Source of the DNA: Paenibacillaceae bacterium
GTDB taxonomy: Bacteria > Bacillota > Bacilli > Paenibacillales > CANHGK01
NCBI GenBank assembly: GCA_947460235.1
Contig: CANHGK010000008.1
Coordinates: forward strand, 13,453 to 77,452
Direction of reading: 5' to 3'
DNA length: 64,000 nucleotides
The notes below the pieces were generated by a model that was not told where the DNA came from, did not search any database, and saw only the letters and a list, made by a program, of their open reading frames with translations. Shown here piece after piece: positions 38,528-63,364 of the stretch (its first letter is position 1; every line of letters starts with the position of its first letter). A program made the position numbers and the translations under genes.

Positions 38528-38705
38528 CCAATGATCACCTCGCGTACATTGTAACACGACATTTCATCGCTGTGAATGCTTTTACTTGCTTTTTTCCGTT
38601 GTTTTCAAGTATGCTATGTGATAAATATAATAGAACATCAAGGAAAAGACAGCCTAACAATGTTCGTGAAATGTGCAGGCCTTGTCTTATTAGGAGGATA
38701 CTTCA

Positions 38706-41144: not shown

Positions 41145-42917
41145 TTACATTCCGCTAAACAATGGAAATAGTGTAGAAAGTTCAACCAAATGTTCTTGTA
41201 ACCATTTGGAGAATCCGTCTTGAAGTGCTGTAGAGACTTCTTGTTCATCTTCCGCGGTTGGTTTCGTCATCTCTTTGTCTTTCATTGGGTCGAATTTCGG
41301 TAAATTCAATTCGTCAACAGCTTTACTAGATGATTTAACATGCATGCCAATTTTTGCGGGATATTGTTCTAAGCCGGCCATTTGTGAACCTGAAACATCC
41401 CAAATTAAATTCCAATCGGAATCGATTTGGTTGTTGGTTGTTTTCACAATTGATCCAAATGTGCCGCGCAATGTAGTATCGACTGCTTTTTCGCCGTATG
41501 CAAAGGTAATGTCTGCGTCTGATTTATTGGAATCCGTTTGATTTTCTTCATTGGTATTAATATTGGCCGACCAAATAAATGGCCCTTGGTCCGGAATGTT
41601 TAGTTTTTGATTCATGGTTAAATGTGTCATTTGGTGATGTTCATCCATAATCATATAATGCGTTTTAAGGGATGTATCCGCATAAGTGATATTACCTTGC
41701 GTTAACAATAATTTGAATTCACTTGCCCTAGGATCTTCAGTATTATCAATCGCGCTGGAATAATCGATCTTAGACCATTCTTTTTCACCAATACTTTGAA
41801 GTTCGAATTGTAATGTTCTGCTTAATAGGTGATCATTCATGTCCACAAAAACAACCATTTCAGCTTTGCGGATTTTGGTTTGTTTGAGGCTTTTGTCTGC
41901 GTCTTCTGCATTTGCTTGCAGGGTCGTTTTCCATTGCGCCAAAGTCTGTATCGTGGTCAGAGGTGTACCTGTTGTATCGGCATACATTTGTAATGCTTTT
42001 TCGTAACGTGTATGAATGAGCGTTAATAACTCGTCGTCAGAAGCGACTTGTTTCATCAATCCAACAATAAATGCTTTTAGCTCACTTTCCGTAAATTCAA
42101 TGGTCAACTTACGGGCTTGTATGGATTTACCGTCAACTTCAAAACTGCTTCCTGATTCGATTTTGAATTGGTCTTTATTCAAATGATCATTGAACCAAGC
42201 GGAATAGCGTAACGCGATCGGTAAAAATTCACTAATAGACGGTTGGATTGCTGCTTTCCATTCATCGTACGTATATACTTTGCGAGGAATGTTTTGCAAT
42301 CCGGAATCTTTCATATTGTCCAAGTTTGCATACAACCACCGATCGTAAAATGGCATTAATTTTACACCGAGAAATTTACTTTTGCCATCACCGATCGATT
42401 TGCCATATGCAAAGTCTACATTTGCCCAAAGATCTTTATTATGATTGATCGAAAATGCTCCAGCGAGTTCTGATTTATCTTTGTTTGAACGGATTTCTTG
42501 ATTAAAAGTAAGTTCAGTAATGAATTGATAAACGGGGCGAATATTTTCGGGGACACGCTCTAATCCATCTAATGAAAGGTTCAAACTAGCCTTTTGTTGT
42601 TGATTTCCGTCAATTATTAGTTTGTTAATCTCTTCAAATGATTTTGAAAATGATGTGCTGATATCCGTTACATTCTGTGCTTCAGCTTCAACATAAATTT
42701 GGAAGGGCGATTTGAACATGTCGTACTTGGCATAAGTGATATAACCTGTACAAATTACGATAAGTACCGCAACGGTGATGCTGGACCATTTTTTCCAATT
42801 TCGAATCCATTTCGTTTTTTCGACGACAGGTTTAAACTCAGAATCCGTTGTTGATTCAGGTGTGACATCAGATGTAACTTCTTTATTATCGGTTGTTTCC
42901 AAGGTGAAATCCCCCAA
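41145..42917 (-). CDS. hypothetical membrane-anchored extracytoplasmic protein
   Basis: 590 aa with one N-terminal TM after an acidic ~50-aa cytoplasmic tail. No recognisable catalytic motifs. Confidence 0.45.
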   Translation of the reverse strand: MGDFTLETTDNKEVTSDVTPESTTDSEFKPVVEKTKWIRNWKKWSSITVAVLIVICTGYITYAKYDMFKSPFQIYVEAEAQNVTDISTSFSKSFEEINKLIIDGNQQQKASLNLSLDGLERVPENIRPVYQFITELTFNQEIRSNKDKSELAGAFSINHNKDLWANVDFAYGKSIGDGKSKFLGVKLMPFYDRWLYANLDNMKDSGLQNIPRKVYTYDEWKAAIQPSISEFLPIALRYSAWFNDHLNKDQFKIESGSSFEVDGKSIQARKLTIEFTESELKAFIVGLMKQVASDDELLTLIHTRYEKALQMYADTTGTPLTTIQTLAQWKTTLQANAEDADKSLKQTKIRKAEMVVFVDMNDHLLSRTLQFELQSIGEKEWSKIDYSSAIDNTEDPRASEFKLLLTQGNITYADTSLKTHYMIMDEHHQMTHLTMNQKLNIPDQGPFIWSANINTNEENQTDSNKSDADITFAYGEKAVDTTLRGTFGSIVKTTNNQIDSDWNLIWDVSGSQMAGLEQYPAKIGMHVKSSSKAVDELNLPKFDPMKDKEMTKPTAEDEQEVSTALQDGFSKWLQEHLVELSTLFPLFSGM

Positions 42918-47312: not shown

Positions 47313-47488
47313 CCACGATGGACAAGGAGTGGGTAAAATCAGTAAGGGGTCTTGGAATTGGAACATAGTTGCAGGTTAGAATTTAGTATGCGCTTTCACG
47401 GAAGGCTAAAGCCCTTGGACCGATTGTAATGGGAATCGGAATATGGGCATTGAGGTGGAATGACGTTCGGAGCAAAAAAGTGGTTTAA

Positions 47489-47902
47489 TTATTGACGCAT
47501 CGACTCTTCAAAAATGACTTGATGAATCATTTCAAAATAAAATTCATAAATCGCCATTTGGTCGACGTGATAGTAACGAACTCCATACATATTGCCTTGA
47601 CTGCGTAGTACTTCAACAAGAATGGCTTTGCGTTTATAAACAATTTTCATTGGTACTTTAGCGGGATACGTTTCATTGCTTCGGATCAGCAATCCTCCCA
47701 GCGAAAAGTTGATAACGCTTGCAACAGAGGTGATGATTTTGTCATTTTCTTTGTGATAAATCGTAATTTCAATTGGTTTTTCTGGAACGTCTACACGAAG
47801 GTCCCGGCGGTTTTCTTCGAAATCTTTTTTCTCACGCGCCATCCTTTCATCCAACGTTTCCGGTTGTGCGGGTTGTTCTTGAGGGGGATTTTGGTCAGTC
47901 AA
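47489..47902 (-). CDS. PilZ-domain protein, paralog C
   Basis: RxxxR motif (NRRDLR) and xSxGG motif (NFSLGG). C-terminus similar to paralog B. The TTG at 47902 follows GAGGTGA; a GTG at 47911 is also possible. Confidence 0.55.
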   Translation of the reverse strand: MTDQNPPQEQPAQPETLDERMAREKKDFEENRRDLRVDVPEKPIEITIYHKENDKIITSVASVINFSLGGLLIRSNETYPAKVPMKIVYKRKAILVEVLRSQGNMYGVRYYHVDQMAIYEFYFEMIHQVIFEESMRQ

Positions 47903-48065
47903 TCTGATCACCTCACTATGTTGAATCTATAGTCACTTTTTTCGACATTTACCATAAGAATCCCTTTTATTTGATTAACTTTTTTAACATTACCAGTTTG
48001 AAAACGGATATGCATAATTATATAATTAATCGATTATATAATAACGAACAAGGAAGTGTTCTGAA

Positions 48066-48506
48066 ATGAATGTAGCAAAAAGTTATCAGTCCCTGCATGA
48101 AAATTGCATTTTTTTTGGTGGGGCATCAGATGTTGAAACAATGATTAAGGAAGAAGGGATCCAAGTTATTGTTGACTTGCGCGGCGAAGCGACTGCGTGT
48201 GCGGATCCAGAAGCGGACGTCGAGTGGATACAAATCCCATTAGGTGACAACACACTTGAAAGTCAGGATGTATTATTCAAACAGGCAATTGATCAAGTTG
48301 TGAGTGCATATCACGATGGGAAAAAAGTTGCACTCCATTGCGGCGGTGGAAAAGGTCGTACGGGTACCGTTGCAGCGGGTGTACTGATTTCGTTGGGGAT
48401 TTGTGACACGATAGACGACGCAGAACAAGTGGCAAAACAAATCCGATCGGTCATTCAAATTAAACCAGAGCAAAAAGAAGCGTTACAAAAGATCTATGCA
48501 AAATAA
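48066..48506 (+). CDS. dual-specificity/tyrosine protein phosphatase
   Basis: P-loop HCGGGKGRTG (CX5R). Confidence 0.65.
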   Translation: MNVAKSYQSLHENCIFFGGASDVETMIKEEGIQVIVDLRGEATACADPEADVEWIQIPLGDNTLESQDVLFKQAIDQVVSAYHDGKKVALHCGGGKGRTGTVAAGVLISLGICDTIDDAEQVAKQIRSVIQIKPEQKEALQKIYAK

Positions 48507-48557
48507 GACAAAGCCTATGACTCAAAAAAAGAGTCATAGGCTTTATTTGTTATAAGA

Positions 48558-50255
48558 TTATTCCCAGTCAGTTACTGCACCTTTTGCAGCGGAAGAAACT
48601 AATTTAGCGAATTTATATAGAACGCCTTTTTTGTGTTTCAACTCAGGAGCAACGAATGCCGCGCGGCGTGCAGCCATTTCTTCGTCGGAAATGTGCAAGG
48701 TCAATTTTTGGTTGATGCTGTCGATCGTTACTTGATCACCGGTTTGTACGAGAGCGATTGGACCGCCAACTTGTGCTTCCGGAGCAACGTGACCGACGAC
48801 GAAACCGTGCGTTCCACCAGAGAAACGACCATCAGTAATTAATCCGACAGTTTCACCGAGACCTTTACCGACAAGGATTGCAGTGATCGATAGCATCTCT
48901 GGCATACCCGGACCGCCTTTAGGACCTTCGTAACGGATAATGACAACATCTCCCGCTTTAATTTCATCCTTCAAAACGGCTTCTGTTGCTTCTTCTTCGG
49001 AATCATATGGACGTGCAGGACCAGTAATTGTACTTACTTTTAATCCGCACATTTTTGCTAATGCGCCTTCAGGCGCTAAGTTGCCAGAAAGCACAACGAG
49101 TGGTCCCGTTGGACGAATTGGATTGTCAAAGGAACGAATGATGACTTGTCCTGGTGTGAGTGGTGTTGCTTCTGCCAAGTTTTCAGCGACGGTTTTACCT
49201 GTAACCGTTAAGCAATCTCCGTGCAACAATCCTTCAGCAAGCAAAACTTTCATAACGGCAGTGACTCCGCCAACTTTGTGCAAATCTTCCCAAACATATT
49301 TGCCGCTTGGACGTAGGTCAGCGATATGAGGTGTTTTGAGGCGAATTCGCTCAAAGTCTGCATAATCAAGTGGTAGGTCAATGGAGTGTGCGATTGCAAT
49401 TAAATGTAAGAATGCGTTTGTTGAACCACCAAGTGCCATAACAACAGTAATCGCGTTCTCAAACGCTTCTTTTGTCATGATGTCACGTGGACGGATGTCT
49501 TTGCGAAGCAAATCGACAACGGTTTGACCTGCTAAATGACAGTCATCGTTTTTGTTAGGATCAGTTGCAGGATTGGAAGAACTGCCCGGCAAGCTCATGC
49601 CCATCGCTTCAATTGCTGCAGCCATTGTATTTGCCGTGTACATACCGCCGCATGAACCTGCGCCAGGACATGCGTTACATTCAATATTATAAAGATCGTC
49701 TTTGGAAATTTTTCCGGCATTGTATTGACCAACACCTTCAAATCCGGAAACGATGTCTAATTTCTTATCTCCATGATGGCCTGCGCGAATCGTACCGCCA
49801 TATACGAATACAGCAGGTAAGTTCATCCGGCCCATCGCGATCATACAACCAGGCATATTTTTATCGCAACCGCCGATTGCAACAACCCCGTCAAGCATCT
49901 CTGCGCCGACAACGGTTTCGATCGAATCTGCAATGACTTCGCGGCTCACGAGGGAGTAGTTCATGCCTTCTGTTCCCATCGAAATTCCATCGGATACCGT
50001 AATCGTGTTAAAAATCAATGGCGCGCCGCCGCCTGCTGAAACGCCAGCTTTCGCACGAATCGCCAATTGATCGATGTGCATATTGCAAGGCGTTACTTCG
50101 CTCCATGTACTTGCAATGCCAATCATCGGTTTCTTAAAATCCTCATCTTTAAATCCAACGGCACGAAGCATCGCACGGTTCGGCGTACGGTTCTCGCCTT
50201 CGCTAATCGCAATACTGCGGATTCTCAAATCGCGTTCTTTATTGTTCTCGCTCAT
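48558..50255 (-). CDS. ilvD: dihydroxy-acid dehydratase
   Basis: Full-length ILVD/EDD family with Fe-S ligand cysteines (CNMHIDQ, CDKNMPG) and the SDG loop. AAAGGA RBS before ATG 50255. Confidence 0.9.
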
Positions 50256-50445
50256 GTTCACATATCCTTTCATTAATAACGAGGTGTCAGACTGCTACTG
50301 ATTATAACAAAATGAACTTGAATTGGAAAACAAAATGAACATTATTTTGTATGAATTCGGTTGCAAAAAAGGAAAACAAACCATATGATGAAAATGTTAT
50401 TTTGCCCATGAGATGGGTGGTTTGCTGATGCCGGGAGGGCTTGTC

Positions 50446-50937
50446 ATGGATCAATTGAAACGAAAACTGCTTGAATTGCTAAACACGGATGCGAGAATGA
50501 CGGCCGCGACGCTTGCTACAATGCTCGACGCAGAAGAAGAGCAAGTGAAACAAGCACTTCGCGAGATGGAAGAAGAACACGTCATTATTAAATATGCCCC
50601 TGTTGTGAACTGGGGAAAAGTTGATGAAGATAAAGTAACCGCATTAATTGAAGTACAGATACATCCAGAAAAAGGACGCGGTTTCGATGGAATCGCAGAA
50701 AAGATTTACCGCTATCCAGAAGTGAAGTCCGTTTACTTAATGTCAGGAGCCTATGATTTGTGTGTTGAAATTGAAGGCCGCACATTAAAGGAAGTTGCTT
50801 CGTTCGTATCGCAACGATTATCGACGGTTGAAGCAGTATTGTCGACGAAAACATATTTCATTCTGAAGAAGTACAAACAGGATGGAGTTATTTTCGAAGA
50901 TACTGAAGGAGATCAGAGGATGCTGGTGTCGCCATGA
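50446..50937 (+). CDS. Lrp/AsnC-family transcriptional regulator
   Basis: HTH followed by a RAM domain. GGGAGGG RBS. Translationally coupled to the downstream aminotransferase, as in the Bacillus yugG-yugH arrangement. Confidence 0.75.
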   Translation: MDQLKRKLLELLNTDARMTAATLATMLDAEEEQVKQALREMEEEHVIIKYAPVVNWGKVDEDKVTALIEVQIHPEKGRGFDGIAEKIYRYPEVKSVYLMSGAYDLCVEIEGRTLKEVASFVSQRLSTVEAVLSTKTYFILKKYKQDGVIFEDTEGDQRMLVSP

Positions 50938-52130
50938 CCATTCAAACCGAAAAGGGAATGCTTTCTTACTTAAATAGCACGGTAAAAGCGATTCCTCCAT
51001 CAGGAATTCGTAAATTTTTTGACTTAGCCAGCGCAAGCAAAGATATCATATCTCTTGGCGTTGGGGAACCGGATTTTGTAACGCCTTGGAATGTTCGTCA
51101 AGCGGCGGTTGAAGGCATTGAAACTGGACGTACGAGTTACACAGGTAATGCTGGATTGCCAGAACTGCGCGAAGAAATTGCGATCTATTTGCATCGCGAA
51201 TTTGAATTACACTATGAGCCGATGAAAGAAGTCATCGTGACGATTGGCGGCAGTGAAGCGATCGATTTGGCGTTGCGTGCGCTTATCGAACATGGGGATG
51301 AAATTTTGATCCCTGAACCATGCTATATCTCATATTCACCGCTTACTCGCTTGCATGGCGGTGTGCCGGTGGGCATTGAGACATTTGCATCAGATCAATT
51401 TAAGCTGCGAGCGGATGCGCTCGAAAAGGCGATTACGCCAAAATCAAAGGTGCTTATTTTGTGCTATCCATCCAATCCGACGGGCGGGATTATGACGCGT
51501 GAAGAAATGTTGCCGATCGCACAATTGGTCGAGAAACACGATTTGATTGTCATTTCCGATGAAATTTACGCAGAACTTACGTATGGCATGAAGCATACGA
51601 GTTTTGCTTCGCTTCCGGGTATGAAAGATCGCACGATATTGGTTAGTGGATTTTCTAAAGCGTTTGCGATGACTGGTTGGCGCATGGGGTATGCGTGCGG
51701 ACATCCGGATCTGATTGCTGCGATGCTCAAAATCCATCAGTACACGGTGATGTGCGCACCGATCATGGGCCAACTTGCTTCGATCGAAGCACTTCGGCAT
51801 GGGATGGAAGAAAAAGATAAAATGCGTGAGTCCTATAATCAACGCCGTCGTTTGGTCGTAACTGGGTTCCGTCAAATCGGACTTGAATGCCATGAGCCGC
51901 ATGGTGCATTTTATGCATTTCCTTCTATTCAATCAACGGGATTGACGTCTGAGCAATTTGCATATCGCCTATTACAAGAAGGCAAAGTTGCTGCAGTTCC
52001 AGGACATGTTTTCGGTCTTGGTGGGGAAGGATTTTTGCGTTGCTCATATGCTACATCTGTTTCCAAACTAAATGAGGCCATTGAACGAATTGGTAATCTA
52101 ATTATTATGCTATCAGATGAAAAAAAATAA
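50934..52130 (+). CDS. PLP-dependent aminotransferase, class I/II
   Basis: Fold-type I aminotransferase with the PLP-lysine context SGFSKAFAMTGWR. Confidence 0.8.
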   Translation: MTIQTEKGMLSYLNSTVKAIPPSGIRKFFDLASASKDIISLGVGEPDFVTPWNVRQAAVEGIETGRTSYTGNAGLPELREEIAIYLHREFELHYEPMKEVIVTIGGSEAIDLALRALIEHGDEILIPEPCYISYSPLTRLHGGVPVGIETFASDQFKLRADALEKAITPKSKVLILCYPSNPTGGIMTREEMLPIAQLVEKHDLIVISDEIYAELTYGMKHTSFASLPGMKDRTILVSGFSKAFAMTGWRMGYACGHPDLIAAMLKIHQYTVMCAPIMGQLASIEALRHGMEEKDKMRESYNQRRRLVVTGFRQIGLECHEPHGAFYAFPSIQSTGLTSEQFAYRLLQEGKVAAVPGHVFGLGGEGFLRCSYATSVSKLNEAIERIGNLIIMLSDEKK

Positions 52131-52254
52131 AAATTTGTGTATATATTTACCAATAAAATCATATAATAATCGTTTTAAATTCCAATTAATGTGTGGTATA
52201 CTTTTTTTCACAACACCAGTAATGGGTGTATTTGGTAACGGAGGTGATGAAAGC

Positions 52255-52509
52255 ATGTTAAGTTACGCGAGATGTCAAACGGTTAACAATGAGAGTGTTG
52301 CGTGGGAAAAAGACACAGCTACATTGAATCAAAAATTGCCAATGAATTTGATCCGTAACCAGTTTATGCTCTCAAAAGAAATTGAGCATATGCGTAAAAT
52401 GATGGAACATGCTGTACTTTCTGGACTCTCTTTCACATCGCCTCAAGTTGTGACAATTAGTCAGCAATTGGATTTGAAATTAGTAGAATATATGAAAAAC
52501 AAGAAATAG
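52255..52509 (+). CDS. Spo0E-like sporulation regulatory (aspartyl-phosphate phosphatase) family protein
   Basis: 84 aa with a Spo0E-family helix pair (MLSKEIEHMRKMM...SPQVVTISQQLDLKLVEY). GGAGGTGA RBS. Confidence 0.5.
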   Translation: MLSYARCQTVNNESVAWEKDTATLNQKLPMNLIRNQFMLSKEIEHMRKMMEHAVLSGLSFTSPQVVTISQQLDLKLVEYMKNKK

Positions 52510-52518
52510 TATGTTAAG

Positions 52519-52560
52519 GCATCCGATCAGATGGTTTTCTCATTTGATCGGATTTTTTTA
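52519..52560 (+). terminator. rho-independent terminator
   Basis: ATCCGATCA...TGATCGGAT stem followed by T7. Confidence 0.5.
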
Positions 52561-52661
52561 TTTGATCACGCATCAATTGATGACTGAAATTCGTAACTAG
52601 TGCAGGAATAGAGTAAAATAAAACTATTGAAAACCGTGATGTAAAACTGGAGGTTGTACAC

Positions 52662-53243
52662 ATGAAAATTTATACAAAAACTGGAGATCAAGGCGAAACT
52701 TCAGTGATTGGGGGCCGAGTTTCCAAAGATGATTTGCGAATCGAAACGTATGGAACCATTGATGAATGTAATAGTTTTGTCGGCTTGGCGATTGCAGCAT
52801 TACGCAAAGAAGGCTCCACTGGAACATTTGATGATGTATTGCTAGATCTTGAAATTATTCAACATGAATTATTTGATTGCGGATCGGATTTAGCTTATGT
52901 GAATCCATCCGCTTCCGGCTATAAAGTAAGTGAATCAATGGTCAAATCGTTGGAAGGATCTATCGATAAATACGATGCGGAAACGCCGGATATTACGAAG
53001 TTTATTTTGCCTGGCGGAACGGAAGCGGCCTCACTGATGCATGTGTGCAGAACTGTTGTTAGACGTTCGGAGCGATTGGTTGTCACGTTGTACAAAACGA
53101 CAGAAATTAATGTGGAAGTGCTGCGTTATTTGAATCGATTATCCGATTGGTTTTTTACCGTCGCGCGTTTGGTCAATCATCGTGCCGGTGTACAGGATAT
53201 TACGTATGTTCGCAGTGCGGATGTATTCCGCAAAACAAAATGA
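52662..53243 (+). CDS. cob(I)yrinic acid a,c-diamide adenosyltransferase, PduO type
   Basis: N-terminus MKIYTKTGDQGETS...RIETYGTIDE is typical of PduO-type ATP:cobalamin adenosyltransferases. Confidence 0.8.
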   Translation: MKIYTKTGDQGETSVIGGRVSKDDLRIETYGTIDECNSFVGLAIAALRKEGSTGTFDDVLLDLEIIQHELFDCGSDLAYVNPSASGYKVSESMVKSLEGSIDKYDAETPDITKFILPGGTEAASLMHVCRTVVRRSERLVVTLYKTTEINVEVLRYLNRLSDWFFTVARLVNHRAGVQDITYVRSADVFRKTK

Positions 53244-54196
53244 CCGAGACAATGAAAACGTATCATTGGAGCGGAACCGTTGCTGCGGACGACGCAAATT
53301 GTTCGATTCATTCATGGCTACGTGAACGGATGGGTTTCACAAGGCGTTTTCTTAGGCGAGTAAAAGTGACTGGCATATTACTTCGAAATGGGAATCGAGA
53401 TTACTGGAATTTACTTGTTGCTGCCGGAGATTACATCGAGTTGGAATGGAAAGAGCAATTGGCAGATATCCAATTAAACCATGACCGACGCGGTAATCAT
53501 TCTGATCTAATCCTTGATATCATTGCTCAGGACGATGATTTATGTGTCGTGAACAAGCCATCAGGTATGCTTGTTCATCCGGTCAAAAGTGAACGAATCA
53601 ATACGGCATTAGATATTTTGCAACGCGAACAACCGACGATTTCGTTTCGACCGGTGAATCGTATCGACCGTGAAACGAGCGGAATCGTTTTATTTTCCAA
53701 ACATGTACTTGCGCATCAAAAATTATCAGAGCAATTCGTTGAACGTTCTGCTTCCAAAGTGTATTTGGCTTGGGTTTGCGGCGAGGTTCCTTGCGAGTCG
53801 GTGTTGAATGAATTGCCAATTGTCAAAGATCATGATCACGCGGTGCGTAGATTTGTATGTCGGGGTGAAGTTATTCCTGAAGAAGCACAACAGGCATCGA
53901 CGATGATTCGCGGGATTCGATCCATCGAGTTGCCGAACGTGGGAATCATTAGTCTAGTTGAAGCAAAACCACTCACGGGGCGAACGCATCAAATTCGGGT
54001 TCATTTGTCGGCAATGGGTACACCGATTTTGGGGGATGTACTTTATGGCGGAATGATCATTCCCAACATTGCTGAGCGAATTCTATTGCACGCAAGCGAA
54101 CTAAGGGTCTTGCATCCACTAACGAAACAAGAACGTTGTTGGCATGCAGAATTACCAGATGATATGAATTTGTTCATGAAATTAACGATTGATTGA
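53240..54196 (+). CDS. RluA-family pseudouridine synthase
   Basis: Catalytic HRIDRETSG-type motif (VNRIDRETSGIVLF), VNKPSGMLVHP, and an N-terminal S4-like region. ATGA overlap with the upstream gene. Confidence 0.8.
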   Translation: MTETMKTYHWSGTVAADDANCSIHSWLRERMGFTRRFLRRVKVTGILLRNGNRDYWNLLVAAGDYIELEWKEQLADIQLNHDRRGNHSDLILDIIAQDDDLCVVNKPSGMLVHPVKSERINTALDILQREQPTISFRPVNRIDRETSGIVLFSKHVLAHQKLSEQFVERSASKVYLAWVCGEVPCESVLNELPIVKDHDHAVRRFVCRGEVIPEEAQQASTMIRGIRSIELPNVGIISLVEAKPLTGRTHQIRVHLSAMGTPILGDVLYGGMIIPNIAERILLHASELRVLHPLTKQERCWHAELPDDMNLFMKLTID

Positions 54197-54215
54197 AGGT
54201 AAAGGAGCGGTTAGA

Positions 54216-54584
54216 ATGTCGGTTGTTATATATTCCTATGATAAATGCGGTACATGCCGTAATGCATTAAAATGGTTGAAGCAATCAGGTGTCGCGTGCG
54301 AGGTCGTACCAATCGTTGATCGACCGCCTACGGAAGCACAGCTCCAAGAGATGATTGCAAATAGCGGCAAGCCCTTATCGAAATGGTTTAATACATCTGG
54401 AGAAGTGTATCGCCAACTGTCGCTAAAAGATAAATTGCCATCGATGACTCCGGAAGAACAAATCCGATTGCTTGCAAGCAATGGTAAATTGTTGAAACGT
54501 CCAATTGTCAGCGATGGTCAACAGGTAACCGTCGGATTCAACGAGGCTGAGTTTGGAGATACGTGGACGGTGCATCATGTCTAA
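54216..54584 (+). CDS. ArsC/Spx-family protein (YffB-like)
   Basis: N-terminal CGTC redox motif in a thioredoxin-like ArsC fold. AAGGAG RBS. Confidence 0.6.
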   Translation: MSVVIYSYDKCGTCRNALKWLKQSGVACEVVPIVDRPPTEAQLQEMIANSGKPLSKWFNTSGEVYRQLSLKDKLPSMTPEEQIRLLASNGKLLKRPIVSDGQQVTVGFNEAEFGDTWTVHHV

Positions 54585-55635
54585 ACCGAATAAAGGTTCA
54601 TTTCGATGGCTGCTGGCAACGACCGGAATATTTATTGCAACGAAATTGAAATGGGTAATCGGTCTCATTAAGTTAAGTAAGTTTGGTGGCACGTTAATTA
54701 GTATGATCATTTCGGTTGGCGCATATGCCCTTGCGTCACCACTTGAATTCGCGATCGGATTCGTGTTACTCATTTTTATTCATGAACTGGGTCATGTCAT
54801 TGCGGCAAAACAAAAAGGTGTTCCGGCGTCAGCGCCACTCTTTATTCCGTTTCTCGGAGCATTAATTACGATGAAGAAAAATCCGCGTGACGCGGTTACG
54901 GAAGCATATATTGCGTTTGGTGGCCCGTTAATTGGCTCAATCGGAGCGTGGATTGTTGGATGGCTCGGAATTGTAATGAAAAATGATTTGCTGCTGCATT
55001 TGGCATATACAGGTGTGTTTATTAATTTAATTAACTTATTGCCGATTCATCCACTAGATGGTGGTCGAATTTCTGTCGCAGTGACTCGCTGGCTATGGCT
55101 CGTTGGTTTGGTCGGCGGATTGTGGATTATTCTACAAATGCAAGCGTGGTTCTTTCTGTTTATTTGGGCATTGTTTGCCTATGAGTTATACCAAAAATTC
55201 GTTAAATTCCGTAACCGCCGCAAACCGATGGAAGTGAATACATCCATCCGCGTAATGTTGGATCCAGAGCGGTCATTTTGGATTCCAGGGGAAGAGCATC
55301 GTGCGCAATTGCAAATTCGTACGTATACAACTTTGGAAGGCGAACAAAAAATTGAGTTGGAGTGGCCGATCGTTGGTATGCAGGAAACATTGCATTTGAA
55401 CTATGCGATTTTGGTGGATGCAATTGAAGTATATGGTGTAAAGAAGATATTGGATGCGGAAGGTCATGTGGTCGCGGCGGACGTGAAGGTCGTCATTCGT
55501 GGGCGCCAGTATGAAGCGGAAGATTATTACGATGTACCGCTCAACGTGCGATTAAGTTATGGAGCGGCATATCTTGGTTTGGCCGGCGCACTTGGATGGA
55601 GTCTGTATTATATCGGCATCATCACGGTGGCGTGA
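54577..55635 (+). CDS. site-2 protease family (M50) zinc metalloprotease
   Basis: HExxH in a TM helix (IHELGHVIAA) and multiple TM segments. Overlaps the upstream stop. Confidence 0.65.
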   Translation: MSKPNKGSFRWLLATTGIFIATKLKWVIGLIKLSKFGGTLISMIISVGAYALASPLEFAIGFVLLIFIHELGHVIAAKQKGVPASAPLFIPFLGALITMKKNPRDAVTEAYIAFGGPLIGSIGAWIVGWLGIVMKNDLLLHLAYTGVFINLINLLPIHPLDGGRISVAVTRWLWLVGLVGGLWIILQMQAWFFLFIWALFAYELYQKFVKFRNRRKPMEVNTSIRVMLDPERSFWIPGEEHRAQLQIRTYTTLEGEQKIELEWPIVGMQETLHLNYAILVDAIEVYGVKKILDAEGHVVAADVKVVIRGRQYEAEDYYDVPLNVRLSYGAAYLGLAGALGWSLYYIGIITVA

Positions 55636-55663
55636 TTTTTTATAATGTAAGGGGATCAAAGCG

Positions 55664-56884
55664 ATGGAACAGCTTCGAAACTTGAAAAAAACGTCGTCCA
55701 GTCGCGTTCAGCAACTGGGCGCGTCTATTTTTGCACGACTTGCAGCGAGTAAGTCACACCGAATTGCATCTGGAAAACGGACGATCGATCTTAGCATTGG
55801 TAGTCCTGATTTGCCTCCGACGGCGAAACTCATTGATGAGATGGCGAGCGCATTACATAACGAAGATGCTTTTACATATCCATCTTCCAAAGGGACGAGC
55901 TATTTTCGTGAAACCGCAGCAAAGTGGATGTTCGCGCGTTTTGGTGTTGAAGTTGATGCGGATCAAGAACTTATTTCGTTAATTGGTACACAAGATGGGC
56001 TTGCGCATATCTCGCTAGCAATCGGTGATTCTGGCGATATCGCACTCGTGCCGGATCCAGGATATCCAATTCATCATGCAGGACCAATGCTCGCGGGCAT
56101 GGAAGTATACCGGATGCCGCTACATGCAGCGAATGGATATTTGCCTGATCTTGATGCAATTCCTACAGATATTATCGAAAAAACGGTCATGCTATTGCTT
56201 AGTTATCCGAGTAATCCAACTACTGCAGTTGCAACAGTCGATGATATGGCAAAATGGGTCGACTTTTGCCGGGCACATGGAATTTTGCTCATTCACGATT
56301 TGGCGTATTCCGAAATGGCGTTCGATGGGTTCGATCCACCAAGTGTGCTCTCCATTCCAGGTGCAAAAGAAATCGCGATTGAATTTCATTCACTCTCTAA
56401 AAGTTTTAATCTTGCTGGTTCACGGATTGGATTCGTTGTTGGTCAGCGCGATGTAATTAGTAGTTTGCGTTCGCTCAAAGAAAATATTGATTATGGCGTG
56501 TTTCATGCCGTTCAACAAACTGGCGTTGTCGCGTTGGAGACGGATATCGAACGAATTTTACAAAAGAAAAGTCCGATTGCAGCTTCGATATATAAACCGC
56601 GTAGAGATCTTTTGATTCACATCCTTCGTGAAATGGGTTGGAATATCGAGATGCCGCGTGCCACGATGTTTGTGTGGGCACCGATTCCAGTTGGTATCGA
56701 TTCAGAGACATTTGCGGAACGATTACTTTCAAGCACAGGTGTCGTTGTTGTGCCCGGCCGAGCGTTCGGTGAACATGGGGAAGGTTTTGTGCGCATCGCA
56801 CTTGTACAAGCAGTCGAAGTAATTCGCGAAGCGGCACAGTTAATGGGACAATTTTGGCAGGAAGAAGGTTGGAAAAATAAATGA
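55664..56884 (+). CDS. class I/II aminotransferase (DapL/LL-diaminopimelate aminotransferase-like)
   Basis: Fold-type I PLP enzyme with lysine context SLSKSFNLAGSRIGF. Confidence 0.7.
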   Translation: MEQLRNLKKTSSSRVQQLGASIFARLAASKSHRIASGKRTIDLSIGSPDLPPTAKLIDEMASALHNEDAFTYPSSKGTSYFRETAAKWMFARFGVEVDADQELISLIGTQDGLAHISLAIGDSGDIALVPDPGYPIHHAGPMLAGMEVYRMPLHAANGYLPDLDAIPTDIIEKTVMLLLSYPSNPTTAVATVDDMAKWVDFCRAHGILLIHDLAYSEMAFDGFDPPSVLSIPGAKEIAIEFHSLSKSFNLAGSRIGFVVGQRDVISSLRSLKENIDYGVFHAVQQTGVVALETDIERILQKKSPIAASIYKPRRDLLIHILREMGWNIEMPRATMFVWAPIPVGIDSETFAERLLSSTGVVVVPGRAFGEHGEGFVRIALVQAVEVIREAAQLMGQFWQEEGWKNK

Positions 56885-57795
56885 AAACAGATCAACAAAC
56901 AAACACAGGGTACGATGTGATGATCGTCGATAGTTTTGCTTTATTATTTCGCGGGTATTTTGCCAGCGCAGCCATGCGCACACCGGAACCGAACCGTTTA
57001 GGTCAATATACAAACGGGCTTCAACAATTTTTGCGATACTTATTGGATGCGATGACGACGTTTTCGCCGAAACATATTTGCTGTGCCTTTGACGCTGGTT
57101 CCAAAACATTCCGAAATGAAATGTACGACGGTTATAAGTCGAACCGTCCCGAACCACCGGAAGCATTACGCCCACAATTCGAAGGACTGTGGGAATTGAC
57201 GCGCGGGATGGGCTTGCCAAGTTATCGGATGACCGATTATGAAGCAGACGACCTCATCGGGTCGATCGCGGCAAAAGCATCTGCACAAGGGCTGCGTACT
57301 GCAATTTTGACGGGGGATGGCGATTCCTTGCAATTAATTGACGCAAACACGGACGTTATTCTCATGAAAAAAGGCTTTAGTCAATATGCCGTCGTAAACG
57401 AAACCGGACTACAAGAATACAAAGGAGTTCGTCGTCCTGGTCAAATTGTCGATTTGAAAGCGCTAATGGGTGACGCGAGTGATATGATTCCCGGTTGCCC
57501 AAAAATAGGGGAGAAAACGGCATTATTACTATTAAATCAGTTTGATAACATTGACCAACTGTATGCGCGCATCGAAGAAGTACCAGCGAGATGGCAGTCA
57601 TTACTGCGTGAACATCAGGATAAAGTGTTGATGTCATATTCACTCGCATCAATTTGCACAACGATTGATGTGGAGATGGAATCGGCATTACATGAACCGT
57701 GGTCACCTAACCGAGAACAATTGCAGGAGACCTTTGAACAGTGGGCAATGGAAAAAGCGGCACCTGCTTGGGGAAAATGGTTGGACCGAGAATGA
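56881..57795 (+). CDS. 5'-3' exonuclease (YpcP-like, PIN/FEN domain)
   Basis: Collinear with the Pol I 5'-nuclease domain (acidic clusters DAGSKTFRNE, GYEADD, H3TH). ATGA overlap with the upstream gene. Confidence 0.75.
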   Translation: MKTDQQTNTGYDVMIVDSFALLFRGYFASAAMRTPEPNRLGQYTNGLQQFLRYLLDAMTTFSPKHICCAFDAGSKTFRNEMYDGYKSNRPEPPEALRPQFEGLWELTRGMGLPSYRMTDYEADDLIGSIAAKASAQGLRTAILTGDGDSLQLIDANTDVILMKKGFSQYAVVNETGLQEYKGVRRPGQIVDLKALMGDASDMIPGCPKIGEKTALLLLNQFDNIDQLYARIEEVPARWQSLLREHQDKVLMSYSLASICTTIDVEMESALHEPWSPNREQLQETFEQWAMEKAAPAWGKWLDRE

Positions 57796-57805
57796 AACAA
57801 AAAAG

Positions 57806-57862
57806 CGGTTTTATCGGGATGCACTGATTTCAAAGTGCACTCCGATAAAACCGCTTTAATTT
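57806..57862. terminator. bidirectional terminator
   Basis: AAAGCGGTTTTATCGG...CCGATAAAACCGCTTT. Confidence 0.55.
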
Positions 57863-58152
57863 TAATGGTCACTAAACGTAATCATGCCTACGATTTGAAC
57901 GAGGAAGTTAGAAAGTTCTTCAGCTTCTTCATCATTCAAATTGTAAGCGAAGCCAATATAACCCTCTTCATCAATGTCGTCCGGACCGATAATTGCGGTG
58001 CGACCGGATTGAATATCCATAATCAATTTTTTTCCGAAAAATCGATCCGTGGTGGTGATTGCCAAGTCAAAGCGGCGAGTCTGTCCAACGAAACATACAA
58101 AACGGGTCGACGTTTGTTCGGTGTGGTCGTATAGATAATCGAAAGGGGACAT
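57862..58152 (-). CDS. DUF1292/UPF0473-like small acidic protein
   Basis: 96 aa with an acidic DEEGYIGFAYNLNDEEAEEL segment. Confidence 0.4.
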   Translation of the reverse strand: MSPFDYLYDHTEQTSTRFVCFVGQTRRFDLAITTTDRFFGKKLIMDIQSGRTAIIGPDDIDEEGYIGFAYNLNDEEAEELSNFLVQIVGMITFSDH

Positions 58153-58164
58153 ACTTGCTCCTTT

Positions 58165-58740
58165 TCACTCTAAAATAATATCTTTGTTCATAATTTGTTT
58201 GTACAGAATGTAGCTTTTAAGATTGTGTAGATTTTCTTTGGATACGATTAAGAATTCGCAACCATAACGTTTGCTTCCTTCAGCACCAACTTCGTTAACA
58301 ATTTTGATTTGCGCGACAAGCGGCAAGTCCATGTTAATCAGCGTATAGTGGCGGTCGGTTTGAACCGAGTTTTCATTAGTAGCAGAAAAACCAGCACCTT
58401 TGTGACTAATATCACTAAGTGAAATTTGAATATGCGATCCGGTTTTGTCGTCTTCAAGATTATCGATAAGATACGCTTTCATACCAGTTTTGATGCGCGG
58501 ATATTTACGTCGAACATCATTCAAGTCCACAAGTGCAAGTGGAATGAACAAATAAACGTTGTTTTGATGAACGTTAATCGCTCGCACGATGAATTCTTTG
58601 CCGCCATATGCGCAAGTCACATATTGTCCTACGCGTAATCTAGATGCGTCTGGAAGCGCAATTTTCATTAATTCTCCGTGATATAGAACGACTTCACCTT
58701 CAAGGATCTCGTCTCCGATTGTAATTTTTACCGTGTCCAT
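58165..58740 (-). CDS. YcgR/DgrA(YpfA)-like PilZ protein (PilZN + PilZ)
   Basis: C-terminal PilZ with an RxxxxR block (RRKYPRIK) and DISHKGAGF. Two-domain layout about 190 aa. GGAGG RBS before ATG 58740. Lies 25 nt downstream of corA on the same strand. Confidence 0.6.
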   Translation of the reverse strand: MDTVKITIGDEILEGEVVLYHGELMKIALPDASRLRVGQYVTCAYGGKEFIVRAINVHQNNVYLFIPLALVDLNDVRRKYPRIKTGMKAYLIDNLEDDKTGSHIQISLSDISHKGAGFSATNENSVQTDRHYTLINMDLPLVAQIKIVNEVGAEGSKRYGCEFLIVSKENLHNLKSYILYKQIMNKDIILE

Positions 58741-58852
58741 GGAACGGCCTCCTCTAAACAGTGCTGAGCCTGCATATGATTGCTTCGATTGCGAAATAGG
58801 ATAGACAAAAAAATCCATACCTTCCACAGTTACTGTATACTATTCTACAACG

Positions 58853-59788
58853 TTAGAGCCATTCCTTCTTCCGGAAAATAAAAATCATCGTCGTTGCCAT
58901 CAAAATAAAAAAGCCAATGACCATAAAGTAGCCATATTTCCAATCGAGCTCAGGCATGACTTTGAAGTTCATTCCATATAATCCGGTAATTACGGTCATT
59001 GGCATGAAGATGGTCGTCAGTGCGGTAAATGTTCTCATGACTTCGTTGGCGCGGTTTGCAAGGTTCAATTGATATGCCTCGCGTAAGTTGCCTACGAGAT
59101 CGCGAAACGTCTCGAATGTCTCCGTAATTTTGATCATATTTTCGTGGATATCGCTGAAATACTTCTGTAGTTTCTCATCAATGAGTCGCAAGTTTCGGTT
59201 TTTGAGCGCCGCGATCAAGTCACGCTGTGGGCCGAGGACTTTCTTGAGCCAAAGAATTTCACTGCGTAACCCCATGATTTCATTCAAATGAGACTTTTTA
59301 TTGTGAATCAGAATGTCTTCATCTAATATTTCAATTTTCGTCTCAATCTTGTCGATAACGGTAAAATAGTTGTCAACGACTAAGTCGATCATATGATAAA
59401 CAAACCAGTCCGGTGAGTCGACGGATTCCTGCAAAAGAATCGGTTTGACTGCGCGAATTTCATTTAATTTTTGCTTCGTAACGGTAATTACAAAATACTC
59501 ACCTAAGAAAATATTCAATTCGCGGATGAAAATTTCTTCGTCATCGTAGCGGATACTGTTTACGACGATATAGTAGAGTTGTTCATGCACTTCAATTTTC
59601 GGACGTTGTTCCTCGTCCGCCATAATATCCTCGATGACAAGGTCGTCAATGTTGAAAAGTTTCTGTAATAACAGCAAATCGTCGGTGTCGGCATCAATCC
59701 AATAAAAGCCGCTTTCCGGATGTCGGGTTGCCTCGACGACACTGTCGAGGATCTCGAAAACTCCGTTTTGCACCAAACGGATCTTCAT
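58853..59788 (-). CDS. corA: magnesium/cobalt transporter CorA
   Basis: GMNF signature (YGMNFKVMPEL) followed by two C-terminal TM helices. Confidence 0.85.
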   Translation of the reverse strand: MKIRLVQNGVFEILDSVVEATRHPESGFYWIDADTDDLLLLQKLFNIDDLVIEDIMADEEQRPKIEVHEQLYYIVVNSIRYDDEEIFIRELNIFLGEYFVITVTKQKLNEIRAVKPILLQESVDSPDWFVYHMIDLVVDNYFTVIDKIETKIEILDEDILIHNKKSHLNEIMGLRSEILWLKKVLGPQRDLIAALKNRNLRLIDEKLQKYFSDIHENMIKITETFETFRDLVGNLREAYQLNLANRANEVMRTFTALTTIFMPMTVITGLYGMNFKVMPELDWKYGYFMVIGFFILMATTMIFIFRKKEWL

Positions 59789-60085
59789 GGGGAATCACTC
59801 CTAACGGACGTAACTACACCCTACACGGTAATGGCAAGGGCAGTCCGGCCAATATGATGTTTGAAAAAAGTACAATTGTCCCAGGGCCTCGGTCGTTCTC
59901 CGTCCATGCCATTTCACTCCTTTATTTCCCGAAATGTCCGCATCCTTTCCAACTATACTCCTCAAAACTAATGCTTTCAAGCGTAAGTTTCCTTGATTAA
60001 AATGCGCTCCTTGACCTGTCAACTCATATGTTATACATTCATCTTTAGACTGCTTTTAATGGTGACAATTGTAGGAGGGTTGGGT

Positions 60086-62197
60086 ATGCCGATTAAGGTA
60101 CCTGATTTTTTACCGGCGAAGGAAACGTTGGTACGTGAAAATATTTTCGTAATGGATGAATCGCGTGCATATCAACAAGATATTCGCCCGCTTAGTATCG
60201 CAATTTTAAATTTAATGCCTAATAAAGAAGTGACAGAAACACAATTGCTTCGATTGATTGGGAATACCCCACTTCAAATCGAAGTAACGTTACTGCATCC
60301 TGCAACGCATCGTGCGAAACATACAGACGAAGCGTACTTGCAGTCTTTTTATCGTACATTTGAAGAGATTAAGGAACATAATGTCGATGGATTGATCATT
60401 ACCGGAGCGCCGATTGGGCATTTACCATATGATCAGGTGAGTTATTGGGAAGAGTTGAAGCAAATTATGGAGTGGAGTAAGAAACATGTTACTTCTACTT
60501 TATTCTTATGCTGGGGCGCGCTTGCTGGACTGTACCATCATTATGGAATTGAGAAAGTTTATGATGACAAAAAGACATTCGGAATTTTTCCGCATAAACG
60601 CAGTTTGCGAAATAAGCCTTTGATGCGCGGATTTGATGATGTGTTCTGGGTTCCGCATTCCCGCTATAACTATATTCGCAAGGCAGATGTCGATGCACAT
60701 CCAGAATTAGAAATCTTGTCTGAATCCGAGGAAACGGGTGTGTATTTAGTTGCATCTAAGGATGGCCGGCATGTTTTTGTAACTGGTCATGCAGAATATG
60801 AAGCTAATTCACTTCGTGAAGAATATGAACGAGATCAAATACGTGGGTTAGATACGTCGATCCCGGAGAACTATTTCCCGAATAACGACCCATCCAGAGA
60901 TGTGATGGTGTCCTGGCGGGCGCATGCATCACTTATGTTTAGTAACTGGTTGAACTATTACGTCTATCAAGCGACTCCGTACGATGTTGAACGAGTGAAT
61001 TTGCCAGTGATGGATTGGCGTTCGAAAGGGTTTTTGATGGACTCAAGACTTGCCCAAATCGGCACACATTCGGATCCTGCTACGGGCGGTGTAAGTTTTC
61101 CAATTTATAATTCAACGGCATTCCGGCATCCGGGTCTCGGCCAAAGTACAGGATTTGACTATTCGCGTTCAAAAAACCCTACGCGTTCCGTGCTTGAACA
61201 AGCCATTGCGGAGATTGAGAGCGGTGACACGGGTTTCGCATGTAGTACTGGTATGGCGGCGTTGCAGACGGTATTTGCTTTATTCCGTACAGGCGATCAT
61301 TTGATTTGTTCACTTGATTTGTACGGTGGTACATACCGGATGATTGAACAAATATTATCGCGTGCGGGTGTGACTGCATCATATGTGGATACGAATGATT
61401 TACAGGCCATCGAATCAGTGGCCAAACCAGAAACAAAAGCTATTTTCATTGAGACTCCGACGAATCCGATGATGATGATTACGGATATACGCAAAGCTGC
61501 AAAGTGGGCGAAGGCACGCGGTTTGCTTACGATTGTAGATAATACGTTAATGACTCCATATTTCCAGCGTCCGATTGAACTTGGAGCGGATATCGTTGTG
61601 CATAGTGCGACCAAATATTTGGGCGGACACAATGACGTTTTAGCGGGTTTAATTGTGACAAAGGGCGAGAAACTTAACACGGAAATGGCCTTTTTGCATA
61701 ATGCAATTGGTGCTGTTCTCGGAGCGAACGACAGTTGGTTGTTAATGCGCGGGATGAAAACATTGGCGCTTCGGATGGAGCGTCACGAATACAATGCGAC
61801 GATGTTGGCGCAATATTTGACAAAACATCCGCTAGTTGAAAATGTATTTTATCCAGGGCTTAAGATTCACCCGGGATATGAAGTGCAGAAGGAACAGGCA
61901 ACAGGTAATACGGGGATTTTCTCATTCCGAGTGAAAGATTCGCGCTATGTTGCGCCAATACTGAAACACATTAAATTGATCAATTTTGCGGAAAGTCTGG
62001 GCGGTGTTGAATCGCTGATGACCTATCCAATGGTGCAGACGCATTCCAATATTCCAGCGCATATCCGTAATGTAATTGGTGTGGATGATTGTTTGCTTCG
62101 TCTTTCCGCTGGCGTAGAGCATATTGATGATTTGGTGGCTGATTTGAGCCAAGCGTTGCAAAAAGCAGCTGACGACGTAGTAGTCGGAGGGGAGTGA
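60086..62197 (+). CDS. metA-metI: in-frame fusion: homoserine O-acyltransferase MetA (N) + cystathionine gamma-synthase/O-acetylhomoserine thiolyase MetI (C)
   Basis: Residues 1-~305 are collinear with MetA through the conserved C-terminus [13 protein letters not shown]. After a ~20-aa linker, a complete Cys/Met-PLP enzyme follows (LAQIG...PIYNSTAF...SATKYLGGH). No stop codon separates them. GGAGGG RBS before ATG 60086. An internal AAAGGG plus ATG (MDSRLAQIG) sits at the junction. Confidence 0.7.
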
Positions 62198-62203
62198 TTC
62201 ATC

Positions 62204-63364
62204 ATGGCTAATCATCGTGACGAACAACACCAGTTTGAAACAAAATTACTTCATTGGGGCTCCGAAATGGATCCGCACTATGGTGCATCGAATGTTCCAA
62301 TTTATCAATGTTCTACATTTCATCAAGAAGATGTGGACAATCCGCCAGAGCATGACTATACACGTTCTGGTAATCCGACGCGTCAAGCGGTTGAGGATCA
62401 AATTGCCTATCTCGAAGGTGGCGCGCGGGGATTTGCGTTTGCGTCGGGGATGGCTGCGATCAGCACAGCATTTTTCTTATTGAGCGCTGGAGATCATGTC
62501 ATCGTGACCGAAGATGTGTATGGCGGGACGTATCGTATTTTAACGACATTGCTGAAACAAATGAACATCGAATCAACGTTCGTAGATATGACAAATATCG
62601 ACGAGGTGAAAGCAGCACTCAAACCGAACACCAAAGCAGTATATATGGAAACGCCGTCTAATCCGACACTTCGGATTACGGATATTCGTACGGTTTGTGA
62701 TTGGGCGCATGCAAATGGGTTGCTCACGATGCTCGATAACACATTTATGACGCCGTATCACCAAAAGTCGATTCCTCTTGGCGTCGATGTGGTATTGCAT
62801 AGTGCAACTAAATTTCTTGGCGGACATTCAGATGTGCTTGCAGGGTTGGCTGTCGCTGCAAATGACTCAATTGGTCGCCGTTTAAAAGGATTGCAGAATA
62901 GTCTTGGCAACGTTGCCGGACAATTTGATTCCTGGTTACTCATGCGCGGAATCAAAACATTGGCAGTTCGCATGGAGCAACATGAGTCGAGCGCGCGTAA
63001 GTTAGCGCAGTGGCTCGTTACCGATCCGCGCGTTGTGAATGTATTTTATCCAGGGTTACCGAATCATCCAGGCCGTGTTGTTCACGAATCACAGTCCAAA
63101 GGTTACGGCGCGATCGTATCGTTCGACGTCGGTTCAGGTGAACGTGCCCGCGAAGTCATGAGTAAAGTGAAATTGCCACTCGTTGCTGTGAGTCTAGGTG
63201 CAGTCGAAAGTATTCTCTCGTATCCACCCAAAATGTCGCATGCCGCGATGCCGCAAGAAGTTCGCATGGCACGTGGAATTACCGATGGCGTGTTACGATT
63301 CTCTGTCGGTTTAGAAAATATTGATGATTTAATTGCGGATTTGGATCAAGCATTGGGTAAATAG
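62204..63364 (+). CDS. metC: cystathionine beta-lyase
   Basis: Cys/Met-metabolism PLP family, collinear with Bacillus MetC (SATKFLGGHSDV). GGAGGGGAG RBS. Confidence 0.8.
   Translation: MANHRDEQHQFETKLLHWGSEMDPHYGASNVPIYQCSTFHQEDVDNPPEHDYTRSGNPTRQAVEDQIAYLEGGARGFAFASGMAAISTAFFLLSAGDHVIVTEDVYGGTYRILTTLLKQMNIESTFVDMTNIDEVKAALKPNTKAVYMETPSNPTLRITDIRTVCDWAHANGLLTMLDNTFMTPYHQKSIPLGVDVVLHSATKFLGGHSDVLAGLAVAANDSIGRRLKGLQNSLGNVAGQFDSWLLMRGIKTLAVRMEQHESSARKLAQWLVTDPRVVNVFYPGLPNHPGRVVHESQSKGYGAIVSFDVGSGERAREVMSKVKLPLVAVSLGAVESILSYPPKMSHAAMPQEVRMARGITDGVLRFSVGLENIDDLIADLDQALGK

Follow-up and report, generated by a model that had tools for sequence, protein, structure and literature searches.

The closest described system to the locus analyzed here is the metA-metI-metC operon of the Paenibacillaceae, which lies divergent to corA and is preceded by an S-adenosylmethionine (SAM, or S-box) riboswitch. 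For the metIC operon of Bacillus subtilis, PMC6522883 lists MetI and MetC as being under SigA and S-box control. We analyzed a 64,000-nt stretch, here called the window, of contig CANHGK010000008.1 from a Paenibacillaceae bacterium (assembly GCA_947460235.1, positions 13,453 to 77,452 of the forward strand). The window has the same order of corA, metA, metI, and metC and the same enzyme families as the Paenibacillaceae operon, but it differs from that operon in that metA has no stop codon of its own, the SAM riboswitch is missing, and MetA carries Gly111 instead of Glu. The metA and metI genes are read as a single frame of 703 codons, denoted metA::metI. All positions given are those of the window, and residue numbers are those of the 703-aa fused open-reading frame (ORF).

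Several fusions of methionine-pathway enzymes can be set beside this gene. A fusion of MetX with cystathionine gamma-synthase in Gemmatimonadota (cluster of P0247; NCBI MCE2421826.1), which recurs in nine records from separate assemblies, unites the same pair of consecutive steps, with the acyltransferase N-terminal and the gamma-synthase C-terminal as in the window. Its acyltransferase, however, is the unrelated alpha/beta-hydrolase MetX, and the fusion belongs to another phylum and is of independent origin. MetA itself is found fused to aspartokinase (P0138 and P0145, the former cluster having seven members including NCBI MDO4720838.1) and to homoserine dehydrogenase (P0133 and P0220, two separate single-member clusters), in each case as a full HTS domain followed by an enzyme of the aspartate-to-methionine route. 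These fusions indicate that MetA tolerates a C-terminal partner, although their partner acts upstream of MetA and not directly downstream of it. Tandem Cys_Met_Meta_PP fusions of the MetI-MetC type (P0121, P0122, and P0130; 760–800 aa, with three members in the P0122 cluster) join neighbouring pyridoxal-phosphate (PLP) enzymes of the methionine pathway but have no acyltransferase moiety. The Escherichia coli homoserine O-succinyltransferase (7CBE, 6MTG) has its fold, Cys142-His235-Glu237, and Gly111 in common with the window MetA, whereas the window MetA groups overall with the acetyl-type enzymes of Bacillota. Set against these systems, the window gene is a new pairing of domains produced by a familiar kind of event, and not a new kind of system.

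The fused gene and its two enzyme moieties are as follows.

60073–60079, + strand: Shine-Dalgarno (SD) sequence AGGAGGG in front of the fused ORF, pairing with the 16S 3′ tail at −10.7 kcal/mol

60086–62197, + strand: metA::metI single frame, ATG at 60086, 703 codons plus TGA (62195–62197), predicted product of 79.2 kDa

60086–60985, + strand: MetA moiety, homoserine O-acyltransferase of the HTS family, residues 1–300, assigned by Pfam, NCBIfam, and structure alignments

61037–62194, + strand: MetI moiety, cystathionine gamma-synthase/O-acylhomoserine thiolyase type, residues 318–703, 42.1 kDa if begun at M318

An earlier note on this DNA had described MetA and MetI as one 703-aa frame, and this was borne out, as the frame from 60086 to 62197 contains no internal stop and both of its Pfam domains are complete. 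The HTS domain (PF04204) covers residues 2–299, matching positions 1–298 of the 298 in the profile with 454 bits, and the Cys_Met_Meta_PP domain (PF01053) covers residues 322–692, matching positions 4–381 of 381 with 481 bits. End-to-end alignments were obtained between the MetA half and the solved structures 2GHR, 2VDJ, 2H2W, and 7CBE, and between the MetI half and 4L0O as well as many other solved enzymes. The catalytic residues of both moieties are intact. The MetA moiety contains Cys142 (in CWG) together with His235 and Glu237 (in GHAEY), the catalytic triad as numbered in the E. coli and Bacillus cereus enzymes, and the MetI moiety contains the PLP lysine K510 of the SATKY motif (nt 61613–61615). 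Among the NCBIfam models, the MetA moiety narrowly passed MetA_acetyl (NF047918; 471.7 versus a cutoff of 460.5) and failed MetA_succinyl (453.5 versus 495). The best match of the MetI moiety was PRK08247 with 524.9 bits, short of the equivalog cutoff of 585, and the merely generic PLP-enzyme names that NCBI gives to many relatives suggest that these also fall below equivalog cutoffs. An identical 703-aa product is recorded as P0519 in a public protein collection (NCBI and ENA; one contig of 294,951 nt), and this exact match to the ORF indicates that the window reproduces the deposited assembly.

The same locus was then compared across relatives. A scan of one genome per species gave 80 loci, in 55 of which (54 from Paenibacillaceae and one from Chloroflexia) metA was followed by a metI-like gene, in nearly all cases directly 3′ of it. 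The window MetA is 57–67% identical and the window MetI 69–75% identical to relatives. In all 55 loci, metA has its own stop at 305–317 aa, typically after ...TPYD(I/L)G(P/A)(Q/G)I and 5–17 codons past TPY, and the spacer to metI is mostly 15–170 nt long with a good SD sequence. Solved MetA chains finish 1–2 residues beyond TPY, and the 120 nearest MetA clusters finish 4–31 residues beyond it, most often 6, in agreement with the earlier statement that most MetA proteins end a few residues past the conserved C-terminus. A stand-alone MetA of about 300–320 aa would be expected to have its own stop about 4–31 residues after TPY or TPF. In the window, the MetA moiety extends through a 14-residue C-terminal stretch ending at residue 300, and the first stop is at 62195. 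The comparison of orthologous loci for a stop after the MetA C-terminus, which had been proposed as a check, therefore returned such a stop in all 55 of these loci.

Two features lie at the junction.

60983–61036, + strand: linker, residues 300–317, 18 residues, made of the former MetA tail and the metA-metI spacer, translated

61024–61030, + strand: retained SD-like sequence GAAAGGG, 6 nt 5′ of the in-frame ATG at 61037 (M318, MDSRLAQIG)

The N-terminus of MetI in the relatives, M(K/N)IESRLAQIG, aligns with M318 of the window in 54 relatives, indicating that the internal ATG is the ancestral metI start and that the linker is the former MetA tail plus the spacer. The first point had been anticipated in the earlier note, to which AAAGGG followed by ATG (MDSRLAQIG) looked like the ancestral metI initiation site. 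The note put the linker at 20 aa, close to the 18 residues measured here. The metA and metI genes are in the same frame in 27 of the 54 relatives, and in 19 of the 54 the metA stop is the sole in-frame stop between them, so that fusion is a one-mutation event. In both of the other frames of the window, a TGA directly follows the TPYD codons (60988–60990 and 60996–60998), so that a 1-nt indel within some 13 nt of the MetA tail would likewise toggle between the fused and unfused states. The RNA at the linker has no notable structure (z = −0.36). The internal SD duplex of −8.7 kcal/mol ranks in the top 6% of random 20-mers and is the second best among the 54 ATGs in the ORF, compared with −10.7 kcal/mol for metA and a median of −10.3 kcal/mol for metI of the relatives. 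Real starts of the window show comparable strengths, which makes some production of free 42-kDa MetI from M318 plausible, and the internal start may be used to make this second isoform.

From these sequence comparisons, we consider with moderate confidence that metA::metI has genuinely arisen by stop loss and encodes a bifunctional MetA-MetI protein, possibly with internal initiation. The usual Paenibacillaceae metA-metI-metC operon would have lost the metA stop by a stop-to-sense substitution or by the gain or loss of 1 nt in the short MetA tail, and translation of metA would then run on through its former 3′ tail and the spacer to the end of metI. A 79-kDa polypeptide with two consecutive methionine-synthesis enzymes would be the chief product, the MetA moiety acylating homoserine and the MetI moiety converting O-acylhomoserine and cysteine (or sulfide) to cystathionine (or homocysteine). 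With the ancestral metI ribosome-binding site and ATG surviving in frame, some free MetI may also arise by internal initiation, and metC would be translated separately from its own strong SD sequence. It is by inference that we take the protein to be produced, both enzymes to remain active when fused, and the internal start to be in use. MetA forms dimers and the cystathionine-synthase family forms tetramers, and in plants cystathionine gamma-synthase accommodates a long extension at its N-terminus. Given these oligomeric states and this tolerance, a tetramer of the fusion appears geometrically plausible.

The operon continues 3′ of the fused gene with the following features.

62204–63364, + strand: metC-like cystathionine beta-lyase gene, 6 nt past the stop of the fused ORF, Pfam match of 487.6 bits

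63370–63426, + strand: intrinsic terminator at the operon end, hairpin of −29.9 kcal/mol (z = −9.2) followed by a U run

The start of metC at 62204 agrees with the 6-nt distance given in the earlier note. Its best NCBIfam match was PRK08064 with 582.8 bits, and its SD duplex of −16.1 kcal/mol is strong. In 44 of the fetched loci, metI is likewise followed by a metC-like gene.

A number of observations weigh against a real bifunctional fusion. The fusion was seen in one genome only, and since many relatives are one mutation away from it and yet remain unfused, the fused state may be selected against. The linker looks like translated spacer and not like an evolved linker. In an AlphaFold2 model built with a 62-row block alignment, the MetA half was confident while the MetI half was poor, with a pLDDT below 50 over residues 300–415, which makes the model uninformative on the fusion. 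No independent assembly spanning the junction was found, the matching contigs covering 47388–58977 and that of a sister strain 61709–62369. A second protein combining HTS and Cys_Met_Meta_PP was found neither among 5.8 billion clusters, apart from one chimeric eukaryotic model, nor among the best 150 of 1.84 billion representatives. This negative result is weakened by the way in which P0519 is filed, in a 90% cluster represented by a 59-aa C-terminal fragment (P0520), since the fusion of the window is itself hidden behind this representative and strain-level fusions elsewhere could hide likewise. A literature search found no report of a MetA-MetI fusion.

Candidates from these searches were examined and rejected. 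The eukaryotic model, a 919-aa Phytophthora kernoviae protein (P0001), is a chimera of a truncated HTS domain, pieces of the PLP enzyme, and a radical-SAM MqnC-like part, and probably results from eukaryotic gene prediction across contaminating bacterial (Paenibacillus-like) DNA. The other long proteins with two hits were tandem PLP enzymes, MetA-homoserine dehydrogenase, MetA-aspartokinase, or MetA-MatE.

An assembly or consensus artefact would be another account of this singleton case, with metA and metI really separate and a miscalled stop or a 1-nt indel within nt 60983–60995. A single indel in these roughly 13 nt would restore a MetA of normal length, and the genome looks metagenome-derived, given that identical DNA is present in metagenome runs. 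The accuracy of the contig, however, argues otherwise. Contigs from three independent assemblies (SRR6787519, SRR6788424, and ERR3761212; L081, L082, and L083) match the window over 47388–58977 at 99.98–100%, and the 19,122 nt compared contain 0 indels and 2 mismatches. On this basis, an indel error in any given 13–20 nt has a probability of at most about 0.3% (95% bound). Homopolymers at the junction never exceed 2 nt. The window contains no broken genes, its long ORFs (including intact ones of 1309, 926, 909, and 813 aa) are uninterrupted, and about 91% of its length is occupied by ORFs of 80 aa or more. An artefact of this kind is, therefore, improbable.

A genome-wide tendency to spurious fusions was also considered and rejected, because the other fused-looking ORF of the window has the normal architecture of its family and is fused in nearly all relatives too.

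12204–13757, + strand: 517-aa ORF joining CbiQ (the T component of an energy-coupling factor transporter) and an ABC ATPase (CbiO), Paenibacillaceae homologues almost all fused at 500–590 aa

One of the three matching runs, ERR3761212, is a metagenome of the Rimov reservoir (PMC10244341). The near-identity of the independent contigs indicates that the contig is accurate and that the organism is environmental. This near-clonal identity across at least two sequencing projects is curious in its own right, and the organism is apparently an uncultured relative of the Paenibacillaceae. The other proteins of the window are singletons in their own 90% clusters, and the nearest MetA and MetI are 67% and 75% identical, respectively, indicating that the species is represented essentially by this genome. 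Metagenome scans with the back-translated linker-junction peptide and with the Gly111 context each gave 0 matches.

The operon departs from its relatives in two further respects, the leader and residue 111 of MetA, neither of which had been mentioned in the earlier note.

58853–59788, − strand: corA-like Mg2+ transporter gene, divergent from metA, Pfam CorA match of 230.7 bits

59789–60085, + strand: corA-metA spacer, 297 nt, without a SAM (S-box) riboswitch or structured leader

60011–60039, + strand: sigma-A-like promoter TTGACC-17-TACATT, 9/12 in a consensus scan, 47 nt before the ATG, giving a leader of about 45 nt

60416–60418, + strand: codon GGG for Gly111 of MetA, in TGAPIG

The SAM riboswitch (RF00162) is present 100–400 nt upstream of metA in all 14 relatives tested. 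Upstream of the fused ORF, RF00162 had no match, and no Rfam family matched in the spacer, whether at its gathering score or at E ≤ 10. A search of the upstream region for a hidden riboswitch, a T-box, or a structured leader was likewise negative (fold z-score of +0.87). The spacer measures 297 nt in the window compared with about 590–830 nt in relatives, and a divergent corA-like neighbour upstream of the met operon is present in at least 20 related loci. A shorter spacer with conserved corA synteny and no S-box suggests that the leader was deleted. The sigma-A-like site is a consensus match alone, and such sites are not more numerous than expected from shuffled sequence. In a scan of the whole window on both strands, no Rfam family reached its gathering score, which is slightly unusual for 64 kb of a Bacillota chromosome.

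At position 111, Glu is found in 78 of 78 other MetA proteins of the fetched loci and in 120 of the 120 nearest clusters. The motif reads TGAPVE in the MetA of B. cereus and Thermotoga maritima and TGAPLG in the E. coli enzyme, and the window MetA thus lacks the Glu111 of the acetyl type. Residue 111 was reportedly described by Zubieta and colleagues in 2008 as the switch between acetyl-CoA and succinyl-CoA specificity of MetA. From its sequence, the window MetA may, unlike that of the relatives, make O-succinylhomoserine. The loss of the leader and Gly111 fit either a remodelled pathway or weakened selection.

Weakened selection on the met operon, under which the loss of the stop is real but non-adaptive, tolerated or mildly harmful, and perhaps part of an early loss of the pathway, would account for the missing S-box leader, the spacer shortened by 300–500 nt, and the replacement of Glu111, as well as for a fusion that is fixed in none of the 55 relatives even though 19 of them are a single mutation away. 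It can be judged further from a sister strain, represented by a 661-nt ENA contig (ERZ28593839; L084) that is 98% identical over window positions 61709–62369 and carries a premature stop at the following codon.

62009–62011, + strand: codon 642, GAA for the Glu of the GGVES motif, TAA in the sister strain (nt 301–303 of its contig)

This nonsense codon would cut the last 62 residues of MetI, showing that disruptive alleles do occur in the met operon. Of the 11 differences between the two strains, 10 are synonymous, none is missense, and one is the nonsense change, a ratio with P ~ 2e-7 under neutrality (10 synonymous, 0 missense), indicating recent strong purifying selection within the species on the 3′ part of metI and the start of metC and arguing against outright decay of the operon. 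Otherwise invariant columns have changed at two positions in MetA (E111G and P273V, relative to 78 other MetA proteins) and, conservatively, at eight in MetI (relative to 53 other MetI proteins), with no excess in either. With their catalytic residues intact and their invariant columns not eroded, the genes are unlike pseudogenes, and the SD sequences, metC, and the terminator are all intact as well. A non-adaptive fusion under weakened selection is on this evidence rather unlikely.

The same departures can be put together in another way, in which a deep-branching uncultured Paenibacillaceae lineage would have rebuilt its entry into methionine synthesis, with a channelling 79-kDa bifunctional MetA-MetI, use of succinyl-CoA through Gly111, and a plain promoter in place of the riboswitch. 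We put this forward only tentatively and think it doubtful. If true, the gene would be the first natural fusion of an HTS-family MetA with cystathionine gamma-synthase, convergent with the MetX fusion of Gemmatimonadota.

Elsewhere in the window, a 430-aa ORF at 37265–38557 (− strand) combines a NAD-binding enzyme of the 3-hydroxyisobutyrate/6-phosphogluconate-dehydrogenase type (residues 13–293) with a C-terminal PilZ domain (residues 315–421), an unusual pairing of a dehydrogenase with a domain of the c-di-GMP-binding type. Another PilZ protein is encoded at 58165–58827, and a 590-aa ORF at 41145–42917 (− strand) has no Pfam match at E ≤ 1e-5.

Since fusions of neighbouring pathway genes are common, a MetA-MetI fusion is only modestly surprising and touches no long-standing open question. 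If the stop-loss fusion is real and active, it would be a natural joining of two consecutive methionine enzymes by the simplest route, the loss of one stop in an in-frame spacer otherwise free of stops, and a possible template for engineered methionine production. Gly111 and the loss of the riboswitch would permit tests of the acyl-donor rule and of riboswitch-free regulation in Bacillota. The fusion would also have been caught while the old ribosome-binding site persists, and would thus offer a case for how neighbours in an operon become multidomain enzymes.

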